Assembly (NCBI GenBank): GCA_016839515.1
Contig: JAEOUE010000197.1
Coordinates: 1-64,000, forward strand
DNA: 64,000 nt
Direction: 5' to 3'
Origin: Candidatus Hodarchaeum mangrovi
GTDB taxonomy: Archaea > Asgardarchaeota > Heimdallarchaeia > Hodarchaeales > Hodarchaeaceae
Below the pieces are notes generated by a model. That model ran no database searches and was not told the DNA's origin. It saw only the letters and a program-made list of their open reading frames with translations. A program made the translations under genes and the position numbers. Below are positions 47,530 to 64,000 of the stretch, piece after piece. The stretch's first letter is position 1. Each line of letters opens with the position of its first letter.

Positions 47530-48793
47530 GTTTTTTTATCATTAAACCCTTTTTCGTATCAAAATAATAAATGGTATTTGCTGGAACATCAGTAGTAACG
47601 AGTGTATGAGCTCCAATCTGAGAATTTTCTCCTAAAATAACACCAGGCATTAGGGAGGCATTGATTCCAGTACTAACCCCGTCACCCATGATAATACCTA
47701 GTTTTCTATGACCAGTTTGAAGTCTTTCCCCTTTTATATTCATTTTAATTTCGTTTTTTTCAAGCTTTAAATTTGCCACCTTAGTTCCAGCACCAAAATT
47801 GCAATTTCGACCAATAACCGAATCTCCAATATAGGTGAGATGTCCAATAGTTGTATTATCAAGAATAATACTATTTTTTATTTCTACAGCGTTACCAATT
47901 TTTACATGCTTTCCAATGTAAGAATACGGTCTAATATAACAATTAGGGCCAATAAAGGCACCTTCGTCAATGCATACAGGCCCTTGAATGTAGACACCAG
48001 GTTTTAAATCGACATGATTCTTGATTTCAACTGGACCTTCGATATTTACTCCATTCAATTTAGGTTCGAGAGTTCTTTGAACTAATTCTTTCATAGAAGC
48101 TTCATTAGCTTCTAAAATATGCCAGGGGTATCCAATATCAGTCCAATGCTCTTTGATAAGGAACACTGAAAACTCAAATCCTTTTAAAATGGCCATATTA
48201 ACTATATCAGGTAATTCAATTTCCCCTCTTGGAGAAACTGCAATTCTGGGATATAAATCGAAAATAGCTCTAGGAAGGGTCATAATTCCTGCATTGATCA
48301 TGTTACTAATAGGTTTTGGACTTTTTTCATGTATTTTAACTAATAAATCGTTCTTAAACTCAAGACACCCATAAATTTCTGGATTGGGGACTTTAGCCGC
48401 AGCAAATGTTCCAAGTTTAGGCGCATTTTTTACTGATACTTCAAGGAAGGAAGAAATATCTTTTGAAAGTGCAAAAATATCCCCATAAAACATAAAAAAC
48501 ATTTCTGAATTTATTAAATTTTTACATATTTGTACTGCATGTCCTGTACCAAGTTGTTCTTTCTGATTAACCCATTCGATTTTAAATGGGAAATCGTACT
48601 TTTCCACTCTTCTTTGAATTTGATCTGCCTCAAACCCAATGACTAATATTACCTTATCAACATGGTTTTTGAGATTGTCAAGAATGTGAAATAGAATTGG
48701 TTTCCCACCAATGGGTATCAATGGTTTAGGAAATTTATTTGTGATTGGATTTAATCTCGTCCCTTTCCCCGCTGTAAGGATTAATGCTTCCAA
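47504..48793 (-). CDS. glmU: Bifunctional sugar-1-phosphate nucleotidyltransferase/acetyltransferase (archaeal GlmU-like)
   Basis: LTAGKGTRL, PKPL, QLGTGHA and WTDIGYPW motifs plus hexapeptide repeats (HLTYIGDSVIG). Confidence 0.88.
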   Translation of the reverse strand: MEALILTAGKGTRLNPITNKFPKPLIPIGGKPILFHILDNLKNHVDKVILVIGFEADQIQRRVEKYDFPFKIEWVNQKEQLGTGHAVQICKNLINSEMFFMFYGDIFALSKDISSFLEVSVKNAPKLGTFAAAKVPNPEIYGCLEFKNDLLVKIHEKSPKPISNMINAGIMTLPRAIFDLYPRIAVSPRGEIELPDIVNMAILKGFEFSVFLIKEHWTDIGYPWHILEANEASMKELVQRTLEPKLNGVNIEGPVEIKNHVDLKPGVYIQGPVCIDEGAFIGPNCYIRPYSYIGKHVKIGNAVEIKNSIILDNTTIGHLTYIGDSVIGRNCNFGAGTKVANLKLEKNEIKMNIKGERLQTGHRKLGIIMGDGVSTGINASLMPGVILGENSQIGAHTLVTTDVPANTIYYFDTKKGLMIKKLGKSRNDK

Positions 48794-49402
48794 TTTTTCA
48801 GCCTCAGAACTATTTTACTAATAATCTGAAAGTAGAATTAGTATTGTATTAGTAAAGTTGATCAAATTTTGTAATTCTTTTCTACTACTTCTTTGCTAGA
48901 TTTTAGATATAAAGAAATCGTTCATTCAGTTTAATTGTTAAGAATTAAATAATGAAGATTTAGGAGGTATTTTTAGATTGGAAAACAAATTTCTTAGAAT
49001 AGAACAAAACATTCTATTTTTTTGATTGAAAATATTTTGGAAAATCATTCCACAATATTAGTTAAAATATTATTTAGAGGAGAAAGAAAAAGATTTAGTA
49101 GGATTTAGAGTTTTTTTACAATTTTAAGGATTTCAGTGTCTCTTTTCTAATTTAAAAGTAGATATGTAGAGAAACAATGAAGAAGATCTATTGTTTTAAA
49201 ATGAATTTAGCTGGTTAAAAGAATATAAATTGTAATTATCAGTTTCGTTTTAGAAAGTTTTTTATGTGAACATGATTCAATATTACATGCATATATCACG
49301 GTGTTATAGTCTTTTCAGATATTTTATGCTAAATAAACTTTGATTCAAATTACTGGTCATCCAGTCTTTCGACATATAACAAACCAATAGGAGTGCTTTG
49401 GA

Positions 49403-49930
49403 TTGAACAACACCGAATATCGTACCTCTACTTCTGTATCATCCGAAATAAATCGGTTGGTACGCGATATAGATAAACATCGTGCCATTGCTTCCGATTT
49501 TTATGAGGAATTACTAGGGCACGCTTCCTTCTTTAAATCATCCAAAGAAGGTTCAAATGACTCCGATGAAAGAAAACGTCGTTTTAAACGCATGGGAGTG
49601 ATTTTAGAAGAATTAAAAGAAGAATATTGGGAAATCTGTGATTTAATACTTGAATTAAATGGTGTTGAATTGTTTGAGAGCAAATCAACGGAAGAAGGGC
49701 TACGAATCTCACGAGAATTAATTGAATTTCTTACACAACTTGAACCAACTGTAAGAAATGCTCATAAAACATTACGATCTAATGAACTGGGAACAGTTGG
49801 TTCTGATCTATTATCTAGTATCAAAAATCAGAAATTCTTCACATTAAATGAGGTTCTGCAAAATATATTTACTGAAATAAATGCCTTAAGCGAACAATTC
49901 AAAGATTTACGACAAAAGAGAATAATGTAA
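49403..49930 (+). CDS. Hypothetical all-helical protein
   Basis: 175-aa ORF with TTG start and AGGAG RBS. Confidence 0.65.
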   Translation: MNNTEYRTSTSVSSEINRLVRDIDKHRAIASDFYEELLGHASFFKSSKEGSNDSDERKRRFKRMGVILEELKEEYWEICDLILELNGVELFESKSTEEGLRISRELIEFLTQLEPTVRNAHKTLRSNELGTVGSDLLSSIKNQKFFTLNEVLQNIFTEINALSEQFKDLRQKRIM

Positions 49931-49952
49931 AAGGGGAAATCCCCTTTTTTTT
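49929..49952. terminator. Probable bidirectional hairpin/U-tract terminator between convergent genes
   Basis: AAAAGGGG-AAAT-CCCCTTTTTTTT lies between the stops at 49930 and 49955. Confidence 0.65.
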
Positions 49953-49954
49953 AT

Positions 49955-50551
49955 TTATTCTATAACCAGTTCTCCACATTTAGGACAAGAGAAAGCTCCA
50001 GGAGGTATTTTTTCACCACATTTATTACAAATCCATATCTTCTTTGTACTATCCGTTGACCAAATTTTCCGTGTTGGGACTGATTTTGGTACTGGCTTTT
50101 TAACTTTTGTTGCAGAACCTGTTGCATAAGCTGTTATTGTTGCAACAATAGCACATGAAATTGTTCCAAATATAAACTCTGATATTGCACCTAATTCAAT
50201 TGTTGGAACATTTACAATTAAAAGAAATGCTGCTCCTAGTATAGTACCAAAGAATCCAGCGAATCCTCCCCAAAACCCTGATTTAGCCCTTATACCAGCA
50301 ATCAAGCCTGAAATGGCCCAAGCAACGAGAACAGCCCAAAATGAATATAATGTAGTAGCATTTAAGTTCATGCCATAAAACATTTGTTGAATTACGGCAT
50401 TAAAGTCTAAGGCTGTAAGGGAAGCGGCATGACTTGGATCAAATATTAACTGAGTAAGTTCTAATGCTGATAATCCTATGCTCAACACCAATATTGTGTT
50501 TATTATTGGATTTGTAGTTTTATTTGACGAATTTTGTGACATTAATGACAT
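49955..50551 (-). CDS. Membrane protein (about 4 TM) with C-terminal Zn ribbon
   Basis: Gly-rich TM helices; WICNKCG...CPKCG. Confidence 0.75.
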   Translation of the reverse strand: MSLMSQNSSNKTTNPIINTILVLSIGLSALELTQLIFDPSHAASLTALDFNAVIQQMFYGMNLNATTLYSFWAVLVAWAISGLIAGIRAKSGFWGGFAGFFGTILGAAFLLIVNVPTIELGAISEFIFGTISCAIVATITAYATGSATKVKKPVPKSVPTRKIWSTDSTKKIWICNKCGEKIPPGAFSCPKCGELVIE

Positions 50552-50780
50552 CCTTCTATTAAATTAATGAATTTAGAGGGGAAATTAAAAAGCAAGTTTA
50601 CAGATTAAAGCTTTCTATGACAATTATTAAATTATATTGAATTAAGGTTAATATTTAGATAGAAGTAAATTTACTGTGATTAGACTAGAATAGTCCAAAA
50701 TTAGAGTTTAAAACCCAATGTCTACAAATAAAACAGTTAAGATCTTTTGATTTGATTTATCAAAGAGTTGTCATACAAAA

Positions 50781-52805
50781 ATGAATAAAATGTCAAATTT
50801 AGATGTATATGCGATTTCAAAGGAACTCCAAGCTCTTGTTGGATATAGAGTAGATAATATTTATCGTGATTCATCGGATAGTTTTTATTTGTTTAAATTT
50901 AAAGGAACTGGGAGTTTTAAAAATCCAATATTATTGATAGAACCAGGAGTCCGTTTTCATTTAACAGAATACAAACATGAAGTACCTCAGCGTCCAACGG
51001 AGAAGATTATGGCAGTAAGAAAACATTTAAAGGGTTCAGAATTAGTTAAAATTTGTCAAGTTGAATTTGATAGAATTATAGAGATGACATTGGTAGGAAA
51101 GCAGAAGTATCGAGTTTATGTTGAGCTTTTTGGGACAAAACCAAATTTTGTTATTGTGGGAGAGGAGAATAAGGTAATTTCAGCTTTGTGGTATAGAAAA
51201 ATGCGTCATCGCGATCTTTTACCAGGTAAGGAGTTTGAATTACCTCCAAGTAGTGGAAAGTCAATATTTCAACTTAGTCTTGAGGAATTAAAATCAAACC
51301 TAGCTTCCAGTGAATATCAAAACGAGGAAATTGTTAGAGTATTAGTACGTAAATTTGGGGGAGGAGGGGGCCTTATGGAAGAAATTTTATACAGAGCTGG
51401 GATTTTAAAATCAATTCACTGCTCTGAAATAACAGAAAAAGAAATTATGACTTTTTTATCTATTTTCAAAGAAATAGAAATAGAATTAATCAACTTAAAT
51501 CCTTCTGTAATTCTTGATAAAGACAATAAACCAGTTTTATATCAACCAATAACTCTAAGATCAATAGATGGTTTTTTAAGAAAGTTTGATACTTTTTCTG
51601 CTGCTATGGACTATTATTACTCTTCTACTCTTCCTCAGATTTCCACAAGTATAATATCAATTGATCGAAAGCGGAAAAAGATACTAGCAATAAAGGAGAA
51701 ACAGGAAAAAGCAATTAAAGAGTTTACAGCGAAGGAAATGAGATACAAATTGCTTGGAGACCGAATTTACGAGAATTTTCATTTAATTGATGATTTATTA
51801 AGTACAATAATGCAGGCACGTAAAAAGAATATATCCTGGGAGGAGATTATGAAAAAATTTGAAAGTGCAGGAACTCACAGCTTTCCTTCTTTGAAAATTC
51901 TCAAAGAAATAGTTCCCGAAAAAGGAAAAATTATTCTAATATTGGATTCAGAAGAAGTTGAAATCGATTTTCGAAAATCTGCTTCAAATATAGCTAATGA
52001 TTTCTATGAAAATGCCAAAAAAGTATCAAGGAAAATTGTACCAGCCCAAGAAGCTCTTGAAAAAACAATTGAGAGACTAAATAACCTATCAGAGGAACTT
52101 ACTATTCAAAAAGAAGCTGCATCGTTGAATTTAAAGAGACGAAAAAGAAAATGGTATGAAAAATTTCATTGGACTTATTCAAAAAATAATTTTCTAATTA
52201 TTGGAGGAAAAGATATTTCAGGAAATGAAGAGTTAGCTAAACGGCGATTAAATGAGACTGACCTATTTTTTCATGCTGAGCTTCAAGGTGCTCCTTATAC
52301 TATATTGAAACGAGAATCCAATGATTTGGATCCTTCAGAAGAAGACATTAAAACTGCTGCTCAATTAGCTGCTTGTTTTTCAAGTGGTTGGAAAGTTGGA
52401 TATGGTGCAGTAGATGTCTATTATGTAACTGGTTCAAATGTGAGTTTTTCAGCACCAAGTGGTGAATATATACCAAAGGGGGGAATAATGATTAAAGGAA
52501 CTAGGAATTATATCAGGGGAGTTGAATTAATTCTAGCAATCGGTATAGAATTTGATGAATATTCCGCTAGAATAATTTATGGAAATGAAGAAAAAATAAA
52601 ACTAGTAAGCCAAAATTACATTTTGATCAAACCTGGTTCCGAACCAAAAGGAAAATTAGCAAAAAAAATCCAAAAAGTCTTTATTGAGAATGCTAACTCA
52701 TCTGAAGAGCAAGCAAAAATACGTGCGATAGATTTGAACGAATTTGTTCACGCCATACCACATAATTCAGTGATCTATAATGTTTTCTTTTCTAAATCAG
52801 TCTAA
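50781..52805 (+). CDS. rqcH: Ribosome quality-control factor Rqc2/NEMF (NFACT, RqcH) homolog
   Basis: MSNLDV, RKHL, FDRI, KWYEKFHW, IGGKD, HAELQGAP and APSGEYIPKG motifs. Confidence 0.92.
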   Translation: MNKMSNLDVYAISKELQALVGYRVDNIYRDSSDSFYLFKFKGTGSFKNPILLIEPGVRFHLTEYKHEVPQRPTEKIMAVRKHLKGSELVKICQVEFDRIIEMTLVGKQKYRVYVELFGTKPNFVIVGEENKVISALWYRKMRHRDLLPGKEFELPPSSGKSIFQLSLEELKSNLASSEYQNEEIVRVLVRKFGGGGGLMEEILYRAGILKSIHCSEITEKEIMTFLSIFKEIEIELINLNPSVILDKDNKPVLYQPITLRSIDGFLRKFDTFSAAMDYYYSSTLPQISTSIISIDRKRKKILAIKEKQEKAIKEFTAKEMRYKLLGDRIYENFHLIDDLLSTIMQARKKNISWEEIMKKFESAGTHSFPSLKILKEIVPEKGKIILILDSEEVEIDFRKSASNIANDFYENAKKVSRKIVPAQEALEKTIERLNNLSEELTIQKEAASLNLKRRKRKWYEKFHWTYSKNNFLIIGGKDISGNEELAKRRLNETDLFFHAELQGAPYTILKRESNDLDPSEEDIKTAAQLAACFSSGWKVGYGAVDVYYVTGSNVSFSAPSGEYIPKGGIMIKGTRNYIRGVELILAIGIEFDEYSARIIYGNEEKIKLVSQNYILIKPGSEPKGKLAKKIQKVFIENANSSEEQAKIRAIDLNEFVHAIPHNSVIYNVFFSKSV

Positions 52806-53429
52806 ATCTTCATTAGAGGTGTCATCCTCAAGATTTGCTTTTATACAATCCGAACATAATGTATAACCATTAGTTACATTTAGAAATTCGGAATAATTAC
52901 CACAATCATCACAAAAGCCTTTAAGTTTTGGGTATTCTAATTCATTTGTTGTATTTTCTATTAAAAGTTGTTCTAGTCTAATTCTCATAAGACCAGGTGC
53001 AAATTTTAAAATATCATTAGTTGACACTATTCCAAGTGGTTTGGATAAATCATTGTTTTCAACAACAAGAATTCGTTCAATATTTCGTTTAGCCATATAT
53101 AACATACAATTCTCCAATGTTTCATCAGATGAAACATAAGCAATTGGATGGGTCATCACATCTTCAACTAAAATTATGCCAGGATCAAGAGCACAGCCAA
53201 CAACTCGATTTATAATATCACCTTTGGTAATAATTCCTAGGATCTGTTCATTTTTTATGACTACTGATCCTACATTATGTTCTTTCATTAGTTTAGCAGC
53301 TTCTGCAACGGGTTGATTTCTTGGCATTGAAATAATCCTAGATTCTTTTTTTAGTAAATGCTTAATTATTACCTCATTTTCTCTTTGAATCACAGTATAA
53401 AGACACTCCTTGATTTCATGATAACTCAT
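52797..53429 (-). CDS. CBS-pair protein with C-terminal Zn-binding motif
   Basis: AAKLMKEHNVGSVV, GIITKGDI and VEDVMT; GFCDDCG...LCSDC. Confidence 0.88.
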   Translation of the reverse strand: MSYHEIKECLYTVIQRENEVIIKHLLKKESRIISMPRNQPVAEAAKLMKEHNVGSVVIKNEQILGIITKGDIINRVVGCALDPGIILVEDVMTHPIAYVSSDETLENCMLYMAKRNIERILVVENNDLSKPLGIVSTNDILKFAPGLMRIRLEQLLIENTTNELEYPKLKGFCDDCGNYSEFLNVTNGYTLCSDCIKANLEDDTSNEDLD

Positions 53430-53825
53430 CGTAAAAATATAATAGTTTTAATCCCAAAAAAAGGTTTGCATCTATTGTCAACATCTGGACTAATTTTGGT
53501 TATTTGATATAATACTATTGTAATACTTAAAATATTTGAATTATTAATGTTCACAATATAAAGAAAGACATAAAGAAGGTAAAAAGTTGAAAATTTAATC
53601 AAAGAAGGGTCAAAACTATGTGAAGTACCATTTAAATACTGTATTTTAAAATAAGATATTATTTTTATTCAAAAAATAAACGAAAATGTATTAAATTTAT
53701 CATTTTTAATAATATGGTAAAAAAAATATCTTCATGAATGAAATGACCCATTAGATTATTAAAAACTATTCTCATTTGCTATTATAACTTGATTGATATG
53801 ATATTTAATTTTAAGATTTCATCAG

Positions 53826-56800
53826 TTAGAAAAGAGTTGTAGGACGTAATCCAATCTCAAATACCTGACGCTTATTTATTTCTAGTAATTTTATCCAAGA
53901 GTCTAAATATTGCGAAATACTTGAAGCATAATTTTCTTCTAGTTGCGTTATAATTTGTGTGTATCGCAATACCCAGCCTTCAGAAAGAGTTAACCCGATC
54001 TTTTCTTGTCCACAGGATGAACATTTACCTGATAGAGGGATACGTCGGAAGTTTCGGTTACATCTTAGACATCTAAAAGGTTGAGAGAAGAATTTTTCTA
54101 AAGAAGAGTTATATTTTTCTAAAAAATCGTTTTCTAATATTTTTTCAACAAACTCACTCTCTTGAGTACCCTGAATTTTTTTAAGGATTGAAAGACTTGA
54201 TTGAATCTTTGAAATAAGTTTACTCTGTTTAAGCGGATTACTAATATTAAATCCTGAGATGTTGTCAATCTTATGAATTTTTGGATAAGAGTAATTTAAA
54301 TTAGAAATTTTGTAGACCAGAAGATCTTTTTTGGTAGGATTACTTTTTAATTCTCTGAAAAATAGTAGATTCATAGGAATGGATTCACTCATTGCATAGA
54401 ATGACAAATCTTCCCAAGAATCTGGCATATTCAAAACCATAGGGACATCCATTGTTCCCCCTCTAGTAGTGGGAATAAATTCTTCAGAAAAATTAATTAA
54501 AACATCAAGTAGAAGAGTAAACGAGTCTATGTCTCCATTACAGTTACGTCCCTTTAATTTATGCCAAACTGGATGTGCATAAAGAACATCAGTTGTGGTA
54601 GAACCAATAATTCGTCCGATCACTCCAACCTTAGAAAAAGGGGAAATTCCGACAATCAAAGAACCCATTAGATCTTGGAAGGATTTTAATCTGAAATAGG
54701 CTGGCAAATCGTAAAATTCAGTTAATTCATCATCAATAAATTTAGTTAGTTTTAAAAGAAATTTTTCAGATGACTTACTAATAATAACATCATATGGAAA
54801 GAGTTCTATTAATTGATTTTCATTTTCTAGCTGCTTTCCTTCAATATCATGGTCATAACCAAGACGGATAAGATCTTCAATCGATGTTCCTACTTCCAGA
54901 GGTTTGAAACATAATAAGGGGGCATTTGTAGTATCAAACCGACTAGTTCCATCTTTATAGACATATATATCATGTCTTGCTCTCAAAACACCTTTGTTGA
55001 GATTCTCTGGAATTTTATTTTTAGTATTAAGATAAGAAACCGCTTTAAATTTTTCTAAATTTGAAATATCACTTTTATTTACCTTTAGCAGTTCCTCAAA
55101 GGCTACAGAATGTGGTTTAGAAGGAACACCATAATTTCCACATACAGGACAATTTTTTGTTTCAAAAGTATGGTTATTTCTGCACAAAAGTTTTTGAGTT
55201 GTTTCTTGATTACAGTCTGGGCAGTAAACATAATAAACTGTTTTTTGACAGGACGAACAGTATCGGTTCGAAAGGTTAAGAATTACTGCCTTTTCTTTTA
55301 TTACTTTTAATAAATTTCTTTGAGACCCTCCTAAGGATCCGATGGGAAAAAGAACGTGAGATGGAGGATTTATATGACGAGGTTCAGCTTTTTCTACTCG
55401 AACTATCTGAGTACCAAGTCTACGTTTTGATTTTGATCTTATTGGTACTCCGATTAATTTAGATACAATTTCCTCAGTCTCATCCTCAATGGAGAGATTA
55501 TTTATTATTTGATCTAAATCAAGATTTTCATCTTTTAAACGAGTTAAAATGTGCTGAAAATTATCAAATTCAATCCTTTCATTACTAACAGAAAAAGGAA
55601 CACCTAAAAAACTTAGAATCCTTTTCATTTCATCATTATTGGGAATTTTTGGTTCTTCATTCTTAATAATATGGTCTAATAAAAGAATTAAATCACTAAT
55701 AGCTATATTATTCCAATTAAAAGAAAATTTAGGGTGCAAAGGCACTTTTGTTAATTTAGATATCAAATAAACTTTTTCAGGATTCAATTTAAAGACTGAT
55801 GGATTATCAAGACAACTTTTTAAAATATTGAAGTCAACAGATAAAGCTCGTGCTAAATTTTGAATCGAACCAAATTTCCTTATTGAGGCATTAATCACCT
55901 CCATTGCCCACCATTCCTCGGTCCAGGAAGATATATCAAAAGCTTCCTGATCAGGAATATCATCAGGACAAAGTAATAATTCTCCTAATTCCCAGATTTG
56001 TATGATTCTATTTTCATATTCTTTAAATGTTTCAATATTGTCAATCCGTACTAAAGAGCCATCTTCAATTGTTACTAAAGGACCTGTTAAACTAGAAACA
56101 GGAAGTGTTATTAAATTTCGTTCTATTAAGTCAATTTTTATTGACGTTCCTGGCGAAATGATTTTTAAAAGCATCATTGTCGCTGGATTTACACCAACTG
56201 AACCAAATCCAGTATTACGTGTGCGTCCATACCTTAATTGAAACCCCCCTGGACCAGATGATTTTGATAACAATGGTTGAGTACCTCGAATTTCTCGATC
56301 ACCAAAAACTAGTTTATTCTTTTTTACAAAATGAAAACTTCTATCTAACCAGTTCCATTCTGGAATTTCAGCTAAAATTTTATATCGAGTAATCAGGTTT
56401 ATATTATCCATAAAACGTTCTAATGCTACACACATTCCCATTCTTAATTGGTTTGATAGAGGTGGAAGATTTCTATATTTAACAACCTCAATTCTTTCAT
56501 AGGATTCACCTGAGATTTCAATACCAATATTTTGGAGTATTAATTTCGCTAAATCCTTTTTCAAATCAGGAATTCGATCACTTAGCTCATAATAAAGCTC
56601 TAATTCCTCAATATATCTTCCTATCATTTCAGGTGTAGCGTTAAATCGATTTAGATGCAAGATTCTGCGTAGGTAATCCGCAATTAGAACAACTAATCCT
56701 ATTACTTCCCCAGGGACATAACGAATAGTATTGGAAAAAAAAATTGTCAAATGTGAAGTCTTTTCTGAAATAGCTATTTTTGGAATAGCCTCTTCGGGAA

Positions 56801-57146
56801 CAGAAATCAATCCTTGACTTAAGATAACACATGCGCTTTGGAGTGCAATTAGAATTAGCTCCTCTCGAGGCAATTTTAAATAATAACCGTTTACTATCTG
56901 TTTGGCTATTTCTGCTGCAAGTAAAAGTGAGTTCTCATGGAAAACGATGTTTGATGGCAAATTTTCTTCTAAACCAGCAATATTTATGATTGAGGAAATT
57001 CTTAACTTTACAGAATATGTTATTATCGATTCTACGTTACATCTTGGGTCATATTTCCGATTTCGTGCTTGTTGTGCTAAAGAAAATTGATTGTTCAATG
57101 ATTTTTTTATCTGTGTAACATAATTGGTGAATTCTGGAAAAATCAT
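53826..57146 (-). CDS. polC: DNA polymerase D large subunit DP2 homolog, probably catalytically inactive
   Basis: GGFQLRYGRTRNTG, YKDGTSRFD, RGGTMDVP and FRCLRCNRNFRRIPLSGKC are present, but the catalytic motif reads RNCNGDID. Confidence 0.9.
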   Translation of the reverse strand: MIFPEFTNYVTQIKKSLNNQFSLAQQARNRKYDPRCNVESIITYSVKLRISSIINIAGLEENLPSNIVFHENSLLLAAEIAKQIVNGYYLKLPREELILIALQSACVILSQGLISVPEEAIPKIAISEKTSHLTIFFSNTIRYVPGEVIGLVVLIADYLRRILHLNRFNATPEMIGRYIEELELYYELSDRIPDLKKDLAKLILQNIGIEISGESYERIEVVKYRNLPPLSNQLRMGMCVALERFMDNINLITRYKILAEIPEWNWLDRSFHFVKKNKLVFGDREIRGTQPLLSKSSGPGGFQLRYGRTRNTGFGSVGVNPATMMLLKIISPGTSIKIDLIERNLITLPVSSLTGPLVTIEDGSLVRIDNIETFKEYENRIIQIWELGELLLCPDDIPDQEAFDISSWTEEWWAMEVINASIRKFGSIQNLARALSVDFNILKSCLDNPSVFKLNPEKVYLISKLTKVPLHPKFSFNWNNIAISDLILLLDHIIKNEEPKIPNNDEMKRILSFLGVPFSVSNERIEFDNFQHILTRLKDENLDLDQIINNLSIEDETEEIVSKLIGVPIRSKSKRRLGTQIVRVEKAEPRHINPPSHVLFPIGSLGGSQRNLLKVIKEKAVILNLSNRYCSSCQKTVYYVYCPDCNQETTQKLLCRNNHTFETKNCPVCGNYGVPSKPHSVAFEELLKVNKSDISNLEKFKAVSYLNTKNKIPENLNKGVLRARHDIYVYKDGTSRFDTTNAPLLCFKPLEVGTSIEDLIRLGYDHDIEGKQLENENQLIELFPYDVIISKSSEKFLLKLTKFIDDELTEFYDLPAYFRLKSFQDLMGSLIVGISPFSKVGVIGRIIGSTTTDVLYAHPVWHKLKGRNCNGDIDSFTLLLDVLINFSEEFIPTTRGGTMDVPMVLNMPDSWEDLSFYAMSESIPMNLLFFRELKSNPTKKDLLVYKISNLNYSYPKIHKIDNISGFNISNPLKQSKLISKIQSSLSILKKIQGTQESEFVEKILENDFLEKYNSSLEKFFSQPFRCLRCNRNFRRIPLSGKCSSCGQEKIGLTLSEGWVLRYTQIITQLEENYASSISQYLDSWIKLLEINKRQVFEIGLRPTTLF

Positions 57147-57850
57147 GAAAGAATCCTAATCCCATTAGGTAAAGTTACGTTAAGTATACCAATATTATTT
57201 ATTGAAGTAAGTTTATCGAAATAGAACACTCCAGTTTGGTTTAAATATGGATTGGGTATCAATGGTATAGTTCCATTTAAAATAAAGATACTATAGGGAT
57301 TTGTTGGCTGAAAAGATTCTCTTCGTTTACTAAAAATAAAGATCTGATTATCAAATACTTCAACACGAGCATGGAATACTAAATTAAATATCTCTTCTAT
57401 AGTTAGGGAAGTCGTCAAGCTTGTTAATTTTAATTTAAAGTTTGCTGAAACTTCACTAGAATAAATATTTCCATTGGTCACATTTGTATATGGTGGTTGT
57501 TTTGCATTCATTTGAAAAGTTTCTTCAATAAATGAGAATTCCGCTAGTATACCTCTGGTTATTGCCAAATATTCTAAATTTTTCAAAAAATCTTTAATAG
57601 ACAGTTTAGCATTTTCTTGAGACATTCCTGAGTTATTTTGCGTGTATTTGGATAAAATATATTCTAAAAAGTTTTGAATTTCCCTTTTAGAGTCGAAATA
57701 TGGTTCTGAGAGAGATTCTCTATTAAATTCAAGTTGATTTACTTGTATGTTCATTAAAGCTGCAGCCATTGAAACAATATAAATCGCTATAAGCATTGTT
57801 GCTAAAATAAACATTTGCCCCTGTCTTGATTTATTAAATAACTTCTGCAT
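57143..57850 (-). CDS. Pilin-like protein with class III signal peptide
   Basis: KSRQG|QMFILATMLIAIYIV. Confidence 0.75.
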   Translation of the reverse strand: MQKLFNKSRQGQMFILATMLIAIYIVSMAAALMNIQVNQLEFNRESLSEPYFDSKREIQNFLEYILSKYTQNNSGMSQENAKLSIKDFLKNLEYLAITRGILAEFSFIEETFQMNAKQPPYTNVTNGNIYSSEVSANFKLKLTSLTTSLTIEEIFNLVFHARVEVFDNQIFIFSKRRESFQPTNPYSIFILNGTIPLIPNPYLNQTGVFYFDKLTSINNIGILNVTLPNGIRILS

Positions 57851-58372
57851 CTATATTTTCTCCCATAAATAAAGTTTAACTAAATAGCCATTCTGAAATT
57901 GACCATATTCTGCAGATGTGTATGATCCAAGATGATAATTAATAATTACTCCCTCTCCTCCAGTTTGAAGTGCTGCAATATCTGCAGCTGAGCCTAAAAT
58001 CGTGTTATATGAATCAGAAGGCACTCCATTGACTAAATCATGAGCAATAAGTATAAAACCATAATTATCACTCAAAATAGAAGTAATATAGGCATCTAGA
58101 AGACTAAGAAAATAGGTTGCTTCATCTGAATAAATAGGATTGAATTTAAGATAAATAGAAGGTCTAAGATAGCCTGCTTCGTCAGCTGTGCTTAAAATGT
58201 CATAGCCAGTTCGATCTAGAAATTTATATGATTGAGGAGGATTTAAGCTTTGGTCCGCAGCATTAATAAGCAATAGAGCGAGAACTAACATTAAAGAAAC
58301 AGCTACCAATGTTTCAGCAATTTGTAACTGACCACGCTGTCTCCTTTTTTTTAAATATTTCATTTTACTCAC
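57851..58372 (-). CDS. Pilin-like protein with class III signal peptide
   Basis: KKRRQRG|QLQIAETLVAVSLML. Confidence 0.8.
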   Translation of the reverse strand: MSKMKYLKKRRQRGQLQIAETLVAVSLMLVLALLLINAADQSLNPPQSYKFLDRTGYDILSTADEAGYLRPSIYLKFNPIYSDEATYFLSLLDAYITSILSDNYGFILIAHDLVNGVPSDSYNTILGSAADIAALQTGGEGVIINYHLGSYTSAEYGQFQNGYLVKLYLWEKI

Positions 58373-59537
58373 TCCAAAGAGTTATTTGACATCGCATTAA
58401 TAAACCACGGACAATCACAGGATAAGTTTTACTCAATAAAGCTTTGATTCTAATATTATCACTTATATGACCCAAAGTATTATAATACTGTCCTTGTTCC
58501 TCTGTTTTATCCAAAATAGCTGGATAAGTTCCAATACCAACTCTATAATAATCCGTATATTGTGAAATACTAAGAAGTATGACAAGGCCAGTTTCTGGTA
58601 GTAATATTGTTTCATTTCCATCCCAAGATATAGACCCTAAATCTAGAAAATGTGATGAATATGAATGTAATGTATCTTTGTAGATTATCGAAATGAAATG
58701 ATTAACAGGTGTATCTGTTGTAGGTAAAGTATCGCTTACAAGCAAAGCTGAAGAATTAATGCCACCTCCCCAAATAGTCGTACTTGAAGAAGATCCGATA
58801 AAAGCTTGAGGAAAAACAGAGTCTATGCTTCCCCAATTTACACCCCAAAGAACACCTGTCTCGGCTACTACCAAGATGACATGTTGTCCATCTGGATCAT
58901 TAAAATGCGGAATCTCATACGTATAAGAACTCCCTCCAGTAGAATTCGTGAGTAGATCCTCTCCGTATAGCAATTGTGCATCTTTTAAGTTAACAACTAT
59001 TACTTTAGAATTAGCTTTAGGGATTGGAGTATTGTAAGGATTTGTAACAACAAATTCTACTCTATTATGGGTTTGATTTACACTGATTAGAGTAAGAGAT
59101 ATCTTTAGGCTTTGTTGAAGGGAGATTTGAAATTCTCTCTTTCCAGATAATTTTATAACATCTTTCAAAGTTTCATAATCATAATTATTCATTCCAGAGA
59201 TAGTAGAAATTCCCGTTCCACTAATAAGACGAGCAATTTTGGCAGCATCCAGAGCAAAATATCCATAATAATGACTAGTGGCTAAACCGAAATTATTAGG
59301 TAAATTTTTTAGATATCCCCAATCATCTGTTCCTGATTCCTGTAATATCATACGGCTAAAATTGTCGAGATCATCATATGAGATTGTCCCTACATCAGTA
59401 CGATTAATATTAGATTGAATGTTAATTATAATAAGGAGTAATTGTGAAAGCATTAACAAGAAAAGGAAAAGACTGATGACAAAGTCCACAGCTCTCATTT
59501 GTCCTTTTCGTTTTTTGTTTAAAAGTTGAAATATCAT
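58365..59537 (-). CDS. Large minor pilin-like protein with class III signal peptide
   Basis: KKRKG|QMRAVDFVISLFLFL; later SGTDDWG...FGLA. Confidence 0.8.
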   Translation of the reverse strand: MIFQLLNKKRKGQMRAVDFVISLFLFLLMLSQLLLIIINIQSNINRTDVGTISYDDLDNFSRMILQESGTDDWGYLKNLPNNFGLATSHYYGYFALDAAKIARLISGTGISTISGMNNYDYETLKDVIKLSGKREFQISLQQSLKISLTLISVNQTHNRVEFVVTNPYNTPIPKANSKVIVVNLKDAQLLYGEDLLTNSTGGSSYTYEIPHFNDPDGQHVILVVAETGVLWGVNWGSIDSVFPQAFIGSSSSTTIWGGGINSSALLVSDTLPTTDTPVNHFISIIYKDTLHSYSSHFLDLGSISWDGNETILLPETGLVILLSISQYTDYYRVGIGTYPAILDKTEEQGQYYNTLGHISDNIRIKALLSKTYPVIVRGLLMRCQITLWSE

Positions 59538-59579
59538 TTATGCTTCCCATCATATTGTGATAATTTGTTAATTAACATC

Positions 59580-60026
59580 CTAAGAAATATCATCGGTTGA
59601 TCCAACATTAGAAACTTCTAGCTGAATTACAATTTCCTCCAATTTATCCTTTAATTCAAGTAAGGTGGTTTCTAATTCAGTTAGCTGTAATCCTTTCTCT
59701 AAAAGAGTTGTTGCTTGAGCAATTAACTCATCTGCTTTTTCAGCTTTCTCTGATCTTATATTTGAAGTGATCTCTGATAGTGTATTCACTTTTAAAGTTA
59801 ATTCAGAGATATTTTTTTCCATAATTCCTAATCTTCCTTCAATTGGTGCAAAATCGACTTCTACAGGGCCAACTGCAACATTAGGAGCTGAAGAAGAGAT
59901 TGGTTTTGGTAATGAACCCCCTGAACCCATGCCTTGGACAAGTAGAAATTCCATATTAGTAAGTTTGTCTTCCAAACTAGATATTTTTTCTAATATTTCT
60001 GTTAATACCTTTTCATCTTTACCCAT
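59580..60026 (-). CDS. Cytoplasmic coiled-coil accessory protein of the pilus operon
   Basis: Heptad repeats; embedded in the operon. Confidence 0.65.
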   Translation of the reverse strand: MGKDEKVLTEILEKISSLEDKLTNMEFLLVQGMGSGGSLPKPISSSAPNVAVGPVEVDFAPIEGRLGIMEKNISELTLKVNTLSEITSNIRSEKAEKADELIAQATTLLEKGLQLTELETTLLELKDKLEEIVIQLEVSNVGSTDDIS

Positions 60027-60042
60027 TATATCACCATTTATC

Positions 60043-60999
60043 CTAGAAAAGCAGAACAGTTATTTTAAAGAAAGCATAGGAGATAATCAATAGAATACAT
60101 GAATGTCTCAAGCCTATTTTAGCATCTCCTTCACCCATTTTTCCTGAAATTAATCCAGCAAATATTGCTTCAATAATCATAAGGTGGAAAAAGAGTAATT
60201 GAAGTCCTGCAACATTCGATGGGAGTTTTGCAGTTGCTACTTGTCCAGCTGAAACAGCATCAACTATTTGAACTGCAAGGGTTTGGAAGAAGGAATAAAG
60301 TAAGATAATCATTACAATCGCAAATACAATGAAAGAGGCATATATTATCCAAGTATAAGGTTTCATTGCTGAAAGTCTTTCCCGTTTTAAACCTAAAATC
60401 TCAGAAACATGGTTATGTGCAGATTCAAATACATCTTCAATGGCTCCACCTGATCGTTCAGCCTCTAAAATCAACAGCGAGGTTCGCTTCATTAAAGGAG
60501 TGTCTGCAGTTTCAGTTAAACTTCGAAGAGCTTTGCTAAAAGGTATTCCCCAACTTATTTTAGCGGCCATTTTTTTTAATTCTGGTGTAAGAGCTCCATA
60601 TTGATGCTTTGAGGATTCCATTATTGCTCTAGGTAATGGTAAACCTGTTTTTTGAGCATCAGAAATCTCTCTAAGAAGAGAAGGAATGTGGTCATCAATA
60701 TTATCCCGCCATTTTTGATTCGAATGATAAGCTAGAGCAGGTATTAAAAGGAGAGCTAGAGCTAGTAATACTGTAATATCTAAAACATCAAAAAACTTGA
60801 AGATAGGATCTAAAGAGACCTCACGTATAGTGAATAAGTAAGGATCATTTTCAATAGGAGGATAAACAGGTTCTGTTCTTTCAACAATATGCTGAATAAC
60901 TGGACTATAGAAAAATAATGAAATCACTAATGTAACAAGAAACAAAAATATTGAGAGTATCCAAATCCTTTGTTCACCTTTTGTAGTAAGTTTTCCCAT
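60043..60999 (-). CDS. Type IV pilus/T2SS F-family (TadC/PilC-like) membrane platform protein
   Basis: IPSLLREIS...TGLPL, ERSGG and GLISGKMGEG motifs. Confidence 0.9.
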   Translation of the reverse strand: MGKLTTKGEQRIWILSIFLFLVTLVISLFFYSPVIQHIVERTEPVYPPIENDPYLFTIREVSLDPIFKFFDVLDITVLLALALLLIPALAYHSNQKWRDNIDDHIPSLLREISDAQKTGLPLPRAIMESSKHQYGALTPELKKMAAKISWGIPFSKALRSLTETADTPLMKRTSLLILEAERSGGAIEDVFESAHNHVSEILGLKRERLSAMKPYTWIIYASFIVFAIVMIILLYSFFQTLAVQIVDAVSAGQVATAKLPSNVAGLQLLFFHLMIIEAIFAGLISGKMGEGDAKIGLRHSCILLIISYAFFKITVLLF

Positions 61000-61015
61000 T
61001 CTTTCTTGCCTCCAT

Positions 61016-61939
61016 TTAAATTTCTCGTGATATTGTTGAAATTAGTAAAAGCATCACTGTTAATAGGATTGGCATCAAAAAATAGGTAAGTAGAACCATA
61101 ATTATTCCACCTACAGTTGCATCCTTAGTGATAACAGCTAAAATAGCAATAATAACAACAAAGAAAAGAGGTGAAACTACTCCGATGATCATAAAAATTT
61201 CTGATAAAACCCCTAATTGTTCAATAAACTCTTTTGTTTCTTCTTCTTTAAGTTTCATTAGCGCTTTACTCTCAGCTGTTAAGAAAAAAGTTAAATCACC
61301 ACCGCTAGTCACTGTTGCAGACATACCATCAAGAAATTTGGAGAATCTTTCTGAAGGAGACCGTTCGCTCGCAGTTCTAAGTGCTTTTAAAATATCATAA
61401 CCAAAAATTTCAATATCACGTGTTATACGTTTACTCTCCTTGGAAATTTCAGGAGCGACTGATTCTTCACCTGCAAGTGAGTAGAATAATCTATCTGGGG
61501 GAACTCCAGAACTTGACATAGCAGACAGATAAGAAGCGGTTGATGGTAAACCAGCTTCAATAAGAATTTTACGATCAGCAGCCTTCATTTGAGGCCAATA
61601 TATGAATGGAATATAGGTTATTATGGCAAAAAATATTCCTAGTATTATGCCTATAATAATACTCAATAATAATTGTCCATTGGCGTTGATTTGAGGAGTT
61701 AATGATTGAACAAGTATTAATACTAATCCTGTACTAAAAAATAAGACTAATAATCCAACAATAATTGAACTGAGTATTGCACTTCCAAGATATGCACGAA
61801 CAGAAATGTCTATTCCTGCTTTTTTTAAACTTCGACCTAATCGCTTAAACTTTCCCCCTTCAATCCATGGTTCTAGATACCTCCCAAAACGGAGATAACC
61901 AACTCGCCTTATAAACTTACTCAAAGTAAAACGCTCCAC
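61016..61939 (-). CDS. Type IV pilus/T2SS F-family (TadB/TadC-like) membrane platform protein
   Basis: LPSTASYLSAMSSSG, FGYDILKAL...SPSERF and SGGDL motifs. Confidence 0.9.
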   Translation of the reverse strand: MERFTLSKFIRRVGYLRFGRYLEPWIEGGKFKRLGRSLKKAGIDISVRAYLGSAILSSIIVGLLVLFFSTGLVLILVQSLTPQINANGQLLLSIIIGIILGIFFAIITYIPFIYWPQMKAADRKILIEAGLPSTASYLSAMSSSGVPPDRLFYSLAGEESVAPEISKESKRITRDIEIFGYDILKALRTASERSPSERFSKFLDGMSATVTSGGDLTFFLTAESKALMKLKEEETKEFIEQLGVLSEIFMIIGVVSPLFFVVIIAILAVITKDATVGGIIMVLLTYFLMPILLTVMLLLISTISREI

Positions 61940-61947
61940 AACGATTT

Positions 61948-63456
61948 TTAGACAGCTTTTAGTTCTCTTTTTGCTCGATCTACAGTTTCTAAAGGATTTT
62001 GATAATAATTGTTAATAACTTCAGCAACTTGTGTGTAATGGGCCAATTTTTTCTTTACTTGCCATCTTAAAATGGTTTTTCGCCTCTCAATTTCTTCATA
62101 AACTTGGGAATCTGTCAATCCTTGGCCTTCTTGTATTCCTTCAAGAATATAAGACCTTCCATAATTGATAAAGGCGTCTTCGCGTGCATTCCAACCAAAA
62201 ACTTTATTTGTTATTAACTCTGTGGTTACCGGATCAATTCCCACGATTTCTGTCGCCTCAATAACCCTTCTTACTTGCTTATCCCCACGTCGAACCTTTC
62301 GAAGGACAATAAGCAGATTTAGAGTTTGAATTAATGTTCGAGGAATATTCATGGGTTCATTTTCAAGTCGACGTATAGTTCCTGTAACACTATCTCCGTG
62401 TATTGTACCCATTCCTGTATGTCCTGTTGCCATGGCTTGGAAAAGGTTATAAGCTTCCGAACCACGAACTTCACCAACAAATAAATAATCAGGCCTTTGT
62501 CGCAATGCAGCACGAAGTAGATCATACATTGATACTTCCCCACGTCTAGATCCATCTATTTCTCGTCCACCATATCCTTCTCGAGCCACGGCTGGAATCC
62601 AATTTTCATGTGGTAAATGAAGTTCTGCAGTATCTTCAATAGATACTATTTTCATTCCTGGTCGAATAAACATTGCTAAACTATTAAGAAGTGAAGTTTT
62701 ACCTGCAGCTGTACCTCCAGCGATAACTACTGAATTTCTATTCTCTAAAGCATACCAAAGAAACGCTGCAAGATCTTCATCAATTGTATTGAATGTTATC
62801 ATATCAGTTATGGTTAGTGGATCAGAACGAAATTTTCTGATTGTAAAAGTACTACCCCTTTGAGTAACTTCTCTACCATATGTTAACTGCAGACGACTCC
62901 CATCAGCAAGAGCTGCATCTAATAAAGGTCGTGCAACACTAATATGACGTCCTGAACGCTGAGCAAGCTTAATAATAAAGGCATCCAGATCATCTTCGTT
63001 ATCAAATTTTATATTAGTTTGAATACTTTCAAATTTTCGGTGCCAGATATAAACAGGAATTCCAACCCCATCACACGAAATGTCTTCAACATTATGGTCC
63101 TTTAGCATTGCATCTATAGGTCCAAATCCCACAAAATCTCGTGTTATATGATAATTGATTTTGTCAAATGTTTTCTCATCTAATTTTAAACCGTAATTTT
63201 TAGCAATACCGATGACTTTCTGTCTTAAGTAATCTCGAGCAACCTCAGGGTTTTTAAGAACATTAAAGTCGACATCTAATTCTTCTTCTAATGTACTCTT
63301 GATCATATCCAAAATTTCTTTCTCTTTAGCACTAAGAGGAACTTCAACGACGGTATATTTAGTTTGTTTTGATTCTGGGTCAGTTGCAACTAGTGCGTAA
63401 CTAAATGGGGGGATTAAAGGATATGTTTCACGAATTAAACTACTCGATTCGGACAT
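61948..63456 (-). CDS. Type IV pilus assembly ATPase (VirB11/TadA/PilB-FlaI-like)
   Basis: EDISCDG, FTIRKF, GGTAAGKTS, SIEDTAEL, LRQRPDYLFVGEVRG and TGH motifs. Confidence 0.95.
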   Translation of the reverse strand: MSESSSLIRETYPLIPPFSYALVATDPESKQTKYTVVEVPLSAKEKEILDMIKSTLEEELDVDFNVLKNPEVARDYLRQKVIGIAKNYGLKLDEKTFDKINYHITRDFVGFGPIDAMLKDHNVEDISCDGVGIPVYIWHRKFESIQTNIKFDNEDDLDAFIIKLAQRSGRHISVARPLLDAALADGSRLQLTYGREVTQRGSTFTIRKFRSDPLTITDMITFNTIDEDLAAFLWYALENRNSVVIAGGTAAGKTSLLNSLAMFIRPGMKIVSIEDTAELHLPHENWIPAVAREGYGGREIDGSRRGEVSMYDLLRAALRQRPDYLFVGEVRGSEAYNLFQAMATGHTGMGTIHGDSVTGTIRRLENEPMNIPRTLIQTLNLLIVLRKVRRGDKQVRRVIEATEIVGIDPVTTELITNKVFGWNAREDAFINYGRSYILEGIQEGQGLTDSQVYEEIERRKTILRWQVKKKLAHYTQVAEVINNYYQNPLETVDRAKRELKAV

Positions 63457-63600
63457 TTATTCCTAACCTTCTATTTATTAATTAATTAATGGAGTTAAAA
63501 ATTTCTCATTAGGTTAACAATTTTATTTAGATTTTAATTTAATTATTTATGTATTTGATTTTTTAGATGTGATTATTAGGATTATGTAATATCTCAAATA

Positions 63601-64000
63601 TTAAGTTATCTGGATATTAAGATCCAGCCCAATCTTTCCTATAGATAAAATAAGTATCTCATTGACGCTTTGAAAAGCTGTATTTGCCACAATAAGGTTG
63701 AATTTACTGTTGATCATGAACGATTGTATACGATTTACTTCATATTTCGTGGTAAAGCCATGAAGTTGGATTTCATTATTAGATACATTAGTTATTTCAA
63801 TAGAATAACGAAGTCCTTGACCAAGTAGCGATGGGAGATTTATATATTGGTTTATTGTAATATTTCCAGAGTCACAAAGTTGCAATGATTGCTGGATTTG
63901 ACTTTGCAGAAATTCGAGAATTTCTCGCATTTCTAGATTAGCTAAATTATCCCGAAATTCTTCACTTAAAGTAAGAAACATTGAATTAGTCAAAATCACT
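63601..64000 (-). CDS. Probable pilin-like/secreted protein (5' end outside the window)
   Basis: Open frame to the window edge; INLPSLLG...YSIEI resembles archaeal pilin-like accessory proteins; upstream of the pilus ATPase. Confidence 0.5.
   Translation of the reverse strand, partial: VILTNSMFLTLSEEFRDNLANLEMREILEFLQSQIQQSLQLCDSGNITINQYINLPSLLGQGLRYSIEITNVSNNEIQLHGFTTKYEVNRIQSFMINSKFNLIVANTAFQSVNEILILSIGKIGLDLNIQIT

Follow-up and report, generated by a model that had tools for sequence, protein, structure and literature searches.

The gene examined here encodes DP2, the large subunit of DNA polymerase D (PolD), and lies in a 64,000-nucleotide (nt) stretch of contig JAEOUE010000197.1 (the window) from the Asgard archaeon Candidatus Hodarchaeum mangrovi, of the order Hodarchaeales, whose genome assembly (G000) is 91% complete in 348 contigs. 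This gene is the only PolD large subunit of the genome and the ortholog of its lineage. Its product very probably is not a DNA polymerase, the gene is nevertheless under purifying selection and is not a pseudogene, and it stands as the last cistron of an operon encoding a type IV pilus-like system. The reading that we favor, with moderate confidence, is that DP2 is a non-catalytic sole PolD large subunit and probably still a partner of the small subunit, DP1, and that the DP2 gene would be co-transcribed with the pilus operon as the outcome of a single gene-order event and without a shared function. Counts given for the genus refer to the host's genus, f3 to f5 are other families of the same class (Heimdallarchaeia), and G and L numbers denote the genomes and loci compared.

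The DP2 gene and the three sites at which its product departs from canonical PolD are located as follows:

53826..57146, minus strand: DP2 homolog of 1106 amino acids (aa), with the Pfam PolC_DP2_N, central, and catalytic domains

54522..54545, minus strand: former catalytic loop NCNGDIDS (canonical NCDGDEDA), placed by alignment to solved DP2

54633..54644, minus strand: s-motif, reading SPFS where canonical DP2 has PHT, so that Phe stands at the position of the steric-gate His, placed by alignment

53826..53846, minus strand: C terminus RPTTLF plus stop codon, without the Qxx[LIM]xx[FYW] pattern resembling a PCNA-interacting protein (PIP) box, from a motif scan

The identity of the protein is clear from its domain content. 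The Pfam models PF03833, PF24844, and PF24846 match far above their cut-offs (E values of 2e-38 to 2e-79) and cover the full length of the protein, with the catalytic model matched only at positions 3-215 of 299. TIGR00354 scores 710.1 bits against a cut-off of 702.15, NF003103 scores 789.8 bits against a cut-off of 1269, and the best solved match is 6hms_B (E value of 4e-160). The catalytic loop reads RNCNGDIDS in the window versus RNCDGDEDA in the solved DP2 proteins of Pyrococcus and Thermococcus, and in an ungapped alignment, N870 occupies the position of Pyrococcus abyssi D956, while the retained D872 corresponds to D958. According to Sauguet et al. (2016; PMC4996933), these two P. abyssi aspartates are the ones that polymerase activity critically requires. 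Aspartate is present at both catalytic columns in 59/59 canonical aligned sequences, and D-G-D stands at the first two Asp positions in 64/64 DP2 loci from outside the Hodarchaeales.

The loss of the active site forms a series across the order. Most species of the genus have the loop NCNGD[IV]DS, and the others have TCNGDIDS, NCSGNIDS (one species), or SCNG[VA]xDS (five species), so that the second Asp is also lost in six species of the genus. The loops of the two sister-family genomes, RTANGDIDS and RNVFLGAVHV, are more decayed than those of the genus. Families f3 to f5 carry CDGDED, with only G032 having Ala for Cys while keeping its three Asp residues. The canonical DP2 frames of f3 to f5 (L142-L144 and L028-L032) are 1340-1750 aa long, and their match is broken exactly between C and DGD, as would be expected of an intein in the catalytic loop; such an insertion is usual in these families. 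No intein is present in the inactive DP2 genes of the Hodarchaeales.

The other two sites have also changed. The steric-gate position holds Phe in 12, Thr in 3, and Ile in 1 of 16 genus sequences versus His in 59/59 canonical sequences; in the pertinent section of Zatopek et al. (2020; PMC7708050), H931 of the PHT motif acts as the steric gate and also promotes dNTP incorporation and efficient dNTP binding. The pattern Qxx[LIM]xx[FYW] occurs within the last 22 residues in 54/59 canonical sequences versus 0/16 genus sequences, and a passage of PMC7101311 reports that the PIP-like C-terminal peptide of P. abyssi binds both PCNA and primase. In the 59 canonical DP2 sequences, 225 columns are at least 95% conserved; 139 of these are retained in the genus (n=16), 63 are lost, and 23 are mixed, and the lost columns include R866, D870, E873, and the PHT His. 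Because one of the two essential Asp residues, the steric-gate His, neighboring basic residues, and the PIP-like peptide are all lost, DP2 very probably neither polymerizes DNA nor reaches the clamp by the usual route.

A genome-wide search found DP2 once in the host, and each of the 20 other genus genomes in which it was found also has a single copy (a gene divided between two contigs being counted once). The order is sampled by 24 genomes in three genera, 23 of which have a DP2 match; the genus genome that gave no match is a single 1.4-Mb contig with 71% completeness. Further public relatives were found by an alignment-based search of genome contigs (10 genus-type loci). The possibility that this DP2 is an extra paralog was rejected, as it is single-copy everywhere searched. 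In a FastTree phylogeny of 46 sequences (residues 284-869, midpoint root, with G022 dropped because its best segment was shorter than 450 residues), very long branches separate the genus and the sister-family sequence from families f3 to f5. These branches are taken to reflect rate acceleration or long-branch attraction, and no conclusion on orthology is drawn from them.

Purifying selection is evident along the gene. The ratio of nonsynonymous to synonymous substitution rates (dN/dS) is 0.25, 0.09, 0.14, 0.11, and 0.10 in the five closest genus pairs, and between the window and L183, a metagenome relative with 88% identity, it is 0.13, with values of 0.07-0.22 in every 200-codon block. The Zn-finger cysteines (C630, C633, C642, C645, C655, C666, C669, C1026, C1029, C1042, and C1045) and double-psi-barrel motifs such as KDGTxRF are invariant in an alignment of 18 sequences. 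Many new residues are fixed in 16/16 genus sequences at sites that are invariant in canonical proteins, for example G236M, L385W, H518F, H1007D, D1011K, and R1084W. A full-length frame is present in all other genus genomes where contig ends do not cut the gene, apart from one genome that is considered below. Median pairwise DP2 identity within the genus is 0.50 (residues 284-869), equal to that between three canonical families; for a canonical genus from this class it is 0.73. Because six species of the genus have lost the second Asp without any sign of gene decay, the selection appears not to be for catalysis.

The genes that accompany DP2 in the operon are the following, listed from DP2 upstream:

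57143..57146, minus strand: ATGA, in which the DP2 start codon overlaps the TGA that ends the last pilin gene, as read in the sequence

57143..57850, minus strand: prepilin-like protein of 235 aa (third of three), N terminus ...RQGQ then MFILATMLIAIY, with the pattern RRGQMFILATMLIA kept in 16 relatives

57851..58372, minus strand: prepilin-like protein of 173 aa, HRGQLQIAETLVSV... kept in 16 relatives, no family match

58365..59537, minus strand: prepilin-like protein of 390 aa, RRRGQIRAVDFVVSLFLFLLML kept in 16 relatives, no family match

59580..60026, minus strand: small coiled-coil-type protein of 148 aa, no family match (Pfam, NCBIfam)

60043..60999, minus strand: platform protein of the C-terminal-half type (TadC/FlaJ-C-like), Pfam T2SSF, E value of 9e-18

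61016..61939, minus strand: platform protein of the N-terminal-half type (TadB/FlaJ-N-like), Pfam T2SSF, E value of 6e-16

61948..63456, minus strand: secretion-superfamily ATPase of 502 aa, FlaI/GspE-like, Pfam T2SSE

63601..64000, minus strand (full gene 63601-64053): 3' part of an open reading frame (ORF) for a 150-aa protein with a hydrophobic N terminus

64069-65013, outside the window, same operon: pilin of 314 aa, upstream of the ATPase and the 150-aa protein

Eight of the ORFs, from the ATPase through the two platform halves, the coiled-coil protein, and the three prepilin-like proteins to DP2, are co-oriented on the minus strand, and their coordinates give spacings of 8, 16, 16, 42, -8, 0, and -4 nt in that order. 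The start of the operon lies past the window end, where the 150-aa protein and the 314-aa pilin precede the ATPase, and the full operon as predicted from gene layout has ten genes: pilin, small protein, ATPase, two platform halves, coiled-coil protein, three prepilins, and DP2. A preliminary description made from the DNA letters had pointed to eight minus-strand genes with small gaps, to the TGA of the last pilin overlapping the DP2 ATG at 57146-57143, to three pilins with class III signal peptides, and to an inactive DP2. The layout is borne out by spacings of -8 to +42 nt and by Pfam matches to T2SSE, T2SSF, and DP2, the overlap is present as ATGA, the inactive state is upheld by the predicted equivalence of N870 to the catalytic D956, and the signal peptides hold by motif only.

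The ATGA overlap recurs in L183, and an assembly artefact was rejected on that ground. In 17 other relatives, the pilin-DP2 junction consists of TGA, 6-10 nt, and ATG, with a spacer that is commonly GAGGAA; the window and L183 have lost this spacer and have the ATGA overlap instead. Because the junctions consist of 6-10-nt spacers with a GAGG-like ribosome-binding site or of the ATGA overlap, there is good evidence, from the sequence of the junctions, that DP2 is co-transcribed and translationally coupled with the pilin genes, although it may also have an internal promoter. In some relatives, a TATA-like string (TTTAATGA) was seen by eye about 30-37 nt before the start codon of DP2. It follows codons of the conserved pilin C terminus and is not conserved in the genus, the same place reading TTTACCTA in the window and TTTTCCGA or TTCCCAAA elsewhere. 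No contig from four metatranscriptome runs was placed on positions 56400-58000 at 80% likeness.

The genes and spacer that border the operon are as follows:

53430..53825, no strand assigned: AT-rich spacer of 396 nt between DP2 and the co-oriented CBS-domain gene, with T-runs and a GC content of 0.27 in that kilobase

52797-53429, minus strand: CBS-pair protein, directly downstream of DP2, syntenic across the genus

50781-52805, plus strand: NFACT-family protein (NFACT_N + NFACT-R_1), convergent with the CBS gene, syntenic across the genus

65419-66462 of the contig, beyond the window: full-length Rad51/RadA gene (HHH_5 + Rad51), divergent from the pilus operon

The NFACT family is linked to ribosome quality control. 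The spacer 3' of DP2 is likely the end of the transcription unit, judging from its composition.

The arrangement is conserved in the genus. The order (ATPase,) platform, platform, coiled-coil protein, three prepilins, DP2, and CBS gene, with NFACT on the other strand, is present in 18/18 genus loci, these being the loci with sequence upstream of DP2, some of which end at contig boundaries, and in 2/2 metagenome relatives, L183 and L184 (50% identical DP2, with the loop RDCNGDIDS). The linkage therefore extends beyond this genome, a point that the preliminary description had set as a test. Rad51/RadA lies beside the operon in 12/13 genus loci reaching that far. The DP2 genes of the sister family are linked to pilus genes in 0/2 cases, their upstream neighbor being an aldolase-like gene or a Zn-ribbon gene in divergent orientation. 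Thus, the expectation that NGD-type DP2 would be consistently linked to the pilus was correct within the genus and failed for the inactive copies of the sister family. DGD-type DP2 lacked the adjacency, as had been anticipated: a pilus homolog was found at 0/4 canonical Heimdallarchaeial loci for which 7 kb or more of upstream sequence was available, and ATPase or platform homologs were found in the flanks of 0/64 DP2 loci of other archaea.

The pilus system exists in the class without DP2. ATPase orthologs with 56-66% identity are present in all five other class genomes searched, and in family f5 (G034, L138), the orthologous pilus operon comprises platform, platform, coiled-coil protein, and three prepilins and then ends without DP2. 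Within the genus, the flanking NFACT, CBS, and Zn-ribbon genes are as syntenic as the DP2-pilin pair. Because all flanking genes are equally syntenic, the adjacency counts as one evolutionary event, and gene order points to one rearrangement in the genus ancestor as the single origin of the pilus-DP2 link. The active-site loss is order-wide and, in the sister family, also occurs without the link.

The pilus components themselves are those of an archaeal type IV filament (T4F) system, in which an ATPase and a polytopic platform are both present (T2SSE once and T2SSF twice). The nearest NCBIfam model of the ATPase is FlaI, at 428 bits and below the equivalog cut-off of 550, and the closest solved structure is 2oap (425 bits). 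Across the genus, the ATPase shows 90-92% identity, against 40-75% for most neighboring proteins; its dN/dS in the five closest genus pairs is 0.013-0.045, and that of the pilins is 0.10-0.27. Such constraint is unusually strong for a genus with otherwise divergent neighbors. The platform is split into two genes, one matching the N-terminal half of ArlJ/FlaJ and the other the C-terminal half of ArlJ/FlaJ and UpsF (NCBIfam), in each case below the equivalog cut-offs. A split platform is also seen in family f5 (L138). The 148-aa coiled-coil protein is 59-71% identical across the genus and has a 24% identical ortholog in the f5 pilus operon without DP2.

The three putative pilins match no pilin family model above threshold in Pfam and NCBIfam searches, and the 235-aa protein has a weak match to DUF7261 (E value of 0.039). 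In 16/16 relatives examined, each of the three families strictly conserves [KR]-R-[GA]-Q, after which comes a hydrophobic helix of about 20 residues, and these N termini fit class III signal peptides. Gln at position +1 is typical of EppA-type archaeal prepilins. Like the archaeal type IV pilus and T4F systems with an afGspE/FlaI-like ATPase and a FlaJ/TadC-type platform that are treated in passages of Makarova, Koonin, and Albers (2016; PMC4858521) and of a 2026 PLoS Genet paper (PMC13705601), the operon combines an ATPase, a platform, and several proteins with class III signal peptides; unlike them, it has a split platform, pilins without a curated family, and DP2 as the last cistron. PMC13705601 states, in its treatment of the group, that a few Heimdallarchaea carry simple core-only T4F loci, and a section of PMC4858521 describes TFIIB and RPB8 genes within operons of clade 4D that resemble those of type IV pili (T4P). 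The passages of these two papers on polymerase and DNA uptake make no mention of a DP2 gene in a pilus operon.

The presumed partner of DP2 is retained in the host. A single DP1 gene is present on another contig (C295, L002:694-2280), where it adjoins an Orc1/Cdc6-like gene, and DP1 was found in 19/21 other genus genomes with 43-48% identity; a search with the same genus query did not find it in the two sister-family genomes. The nuclease motifs DxH, GD, H, and GHxH are kept in 19/19 genus sequences (including loci L146-L164), and the fifth motif, GNHD, has become GEHD in 18/19 and GERD in 1/19. The DP1 with GERD and the DP2 with the SGNID loop belong to the same species. The preliminary description had taken DP2 to be normally associated with replication genes, and this is partly so: DP1 lies near DP2, within the fetched flanks, in 28/64 canonical loci versus 0/10 genus-type loci. 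The host also has four B-family polymerase (PolB) loci, one in the window (7776-8837, within an ORF of 861 aa) and the others on contigs C41, C34, and C47. One PolB lies in a 1461-aa frame and is possibly of the epsilon-like B10 type, and another, in a 1288-aa frame, is matched in two separate pieces, possibly because of an intein or insertion.

These observations suggest that DP2 would act as a non-catalytic, DNA-binding partner of DP1, that the B-family polymerases presumably replicate the chromosome, and that a genus-level gene-order event may have placed DP2 as the last cistron of the pilus operon, which would supply its expression. In canonical PolD, the C-terminal Zn finger of DP2 binds DP1, and because the Zn-finger cysteines are conserved here, DP2 probably still pairs with DP1.

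Several observations weigh against this interpretation. Within DP2 residues 1001-1100, the genus departs from 8 of the 22 conserved columns. With Asn at the first metal-ligand site, there might be residual or altered catalysis in the N-G-D-x-D species, including the host. A role at the replication fork is made less likely by the absence of the PIP-like tail, and calling DP2 a partner of DP1 says little on the task of the pair. The tight junction with its Shine-Dalgarno sequence persists though DP2 is only 42-55% identical, and Rad51/RadA flanks the operon in 12/13 loci; each would fit a DNA role of the whole cluster. Finally, DP2 in G015 (L035:3267-6578; a single contig, about 70% complete) has an in-frame TGA at the otherwise invariant Gly237 codon, which may reflect a sequencing error or else a genuine nonsense mutation and thus a dispensable gene.

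A first alternative is that DP2 has acquired a new cytoplasmic function apart from both DP1 and the pilus, for example as a DNA- or RNA-binding regulator or a repair factor, and that its operon position is incidental. The replacements that are invariant across the genus (G236M through R1084W, listed above) suggest new constraints, and purifying selection acts along the whole protein. However, DP1 is also single-copy and similarly accelerated, the C-terminal Zn finger of DP2 is intact, and the occurrence in one species of the GERD DP1 together with the SGNID DP2, the most decayed of its clade, hints at a linked fate of the two subunits. We therefore regard a function independent of DP1 as unlikely.

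The preliminary description had put forward the hypothesis that the dead polymerase serves, by exaptation, as a cytoplasmic DNA receptor or clamp in DNA uptake or transfer by the pilus, and the DP1 nuclease and the RadA paralog might be added to such an apparatus. Coupling-type junctions within the operon in all 18 genus loci and both metagenome relatives are in keeping with this idea, as is the retention of the DNA-binding scaffold and Zn fingers with loss of catalysis and of the PCNA/primase tail, by which DP2 seems freed from the fork. A divergent Rad51/RadA paralog adjoins the operon in 12/13 loci, one of five in the host, and a precedent for information-processing genes in such operons is given by the clade 4D account of TFIIB and RPB8 (PMC4858521). 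The sole DNA-metabolism neighbor found by domain is this Rad51/RadA paralog; the five strong Rad51-family loci in the host score 239-311 bits and are an unusually large set.

On the other side, the link arose once, the inactive DP2 of the sister family is unlinked (0/2), an orthologous pilus operon, coiled-coil gene included, exists without DP2 in family f5, and unrelated flanking genes are equally syntenic. Identity within the genus is 90-92% for the ATPase versus 46-55% for DP2, which is not what would be expected of partners that co-evolve tightly. Com pili of bacteria and the Ced/Ups systems of Sulfolobales pair a pilus with DNA conduit or processing proteins (ComEC, ComEA, DprA, and CedA/B). 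The present operon resembles them in having a type IV pilus near DNA-metabolism genes (DP2 and the RadA paralog) and differs in having no DNA-conduit or processing protein nearby by Pfam. Pfam domains of ComEC, ComEA, DprA, and HerA/VirB4-type ATPases were found in none of the 14 ORFs at 47504-64000 (16.5 kb) or the 10 ORFs of the next 11 kb, and neither was any Ced-like domain, although the CedA and CedB models were not searched specifically. The ComEC, DprA, or Ced-like genes that might have been expected beyond position 64000 thus did not turn up, within the same limit on CedA and CedB. The proposal of a competence-pilus receptor is not supported, DP2 being the sole PolD ortholog, and we consider it quite improbable. 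A broader version, in which PolD has left the replisome and DP2 with the nuclease DP1, expressed from the RadA-flanked pilus operon, would receive or process DNA taken up or exchanged via the pilus and so form a polymerase-derived part of an archaeal DNA-exchange system, appears more doubtful still.

It is also very unlikely that the N-G-D-x-D protein is a working polymerase with altered metal use. Two of the three acidic residues remain in the host, the KDGTxRF-type barrel motifs are invariant, and selection is purifying. Against this, D956 is one of the two critical aspartates in the part of PMC4996933 concerned, the steric-gate His, needed for efficient dNTP binding according to a section of PMC7708050, is lost in 16/16 sequences, the second Asp is also gone in six genus species without gene decay, the PIP-like tail is lost, and the rate is accelerated (median identity of 0.50 versus 0.73 in the canonical genus). 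Least probable of all is a functionless decaying relic carried by the pilus operon: the increasingly decayed loops found across the order, the in-frame TGA in G015, and the 63/225 canonical conserved columns lost would agree with it, but the frame is open and full length in all other uncut genus genes, dN/dS is 0.09-0.25, and many residues are newly fixed genus-wide.

The preferred reading, a non-catalytic partner of DP1, builds on earlier work. That Hodarchaeal DP2 is inactive is already known: the section of Kazlauskas et al. (2020, NAR; PMC7544198) on this lineage describes a Heimdall_B3/LC3-like group without an active DP2, records active DP2 and DP1 in other Heimdallarchaea (AB125), states that the B3 DP1 may still be active, and suggests that the loss could be afforded by an acquired PolB with a C-terminal Zn domain; its Figure S16 marks the active site on an alignment of DP2 sequences. 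The present genus shares that lineage, and its public DP2 loci include 'Candidatus Heimdallarchaeota archaeon B3_Heim', 'Candidatus Hodarchaeota archaeon', and 'Promethearchaeota archaeon'. It also shares a DP2 without an intact active site, a DP1 that keeps most motifs, and several PolB genes, including the 1461-aa frame. The earlier report, in the part concerned, rests on a few metagenome-assembled genomes without gene context. It also says of DP1 that it 'contains all five motifs', with no mention there of GEHD, the form seen here for GNHD. No further report of an inactive Hodarchaeal DP2 was found among full-text literature matches on Asgard PolD, and PMC12680538 contains no word beginning with 'inactiv'. 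What is new is that the loss is present in all 23 genomes of the order with a match, as a decay series in which the steric-gate His and the PIP-like tail are also lost, and that the inactive DP2 is under purifying selection and lies in the pilus operon of one genus.

Compared with canonical PolD (P. abyssi, PDB 6hms and 5ijl), the protein is alike in its three-domain architecture, length, Zn fingers, and barrel motifs and differs in having lost the catalytic Asp, the steric-gate His, and the PIP-like peptide, in the placement of its gene away from DP1, and in its faster evolution. Eukaryotic modules derived from PolD, as treated in sections of PMC7544198 and PMC12680538, comprise the inactivated C-terminal half of Pol epsilon, DP2-like C-terminal domains, and inactive DP1-like B-subunits. 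Like these, the Hodarchaeal DP2 is a polymerase-derived part kept in a non-catalytic state after a B-family takeover; unlike them, it is a whole and separate DP2, without PolB fusion, and the accompanying DP1 looks nuclease-competent from its motifs. In the two-hybrid results given in a section of PMC12680538, the C terminus of the Hodarchaeal epsilon-like PolB did not interact with DP1.

The Hodarchaeales are candidate closest archaeal relatives of eukaryotes, which kept only non-catalytic remnants of PolD. If DP2 and the pilus did work together, they would make up a new kind of DNA-exchange apparatus, which the present evidence does not favor. The position of DP2 in the pilus operon predicts that its expression in the genus follows that of the pilus genes. 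The loss of the steric gate and of the PIP-like peptide and the retention of DP1 nuclease motifs narrow the possible role of the remnant. A DP2 that is dead order-wide and yet conserved at full length would represent a living intermediate in the hand-over from PolD to B-family polymerases.

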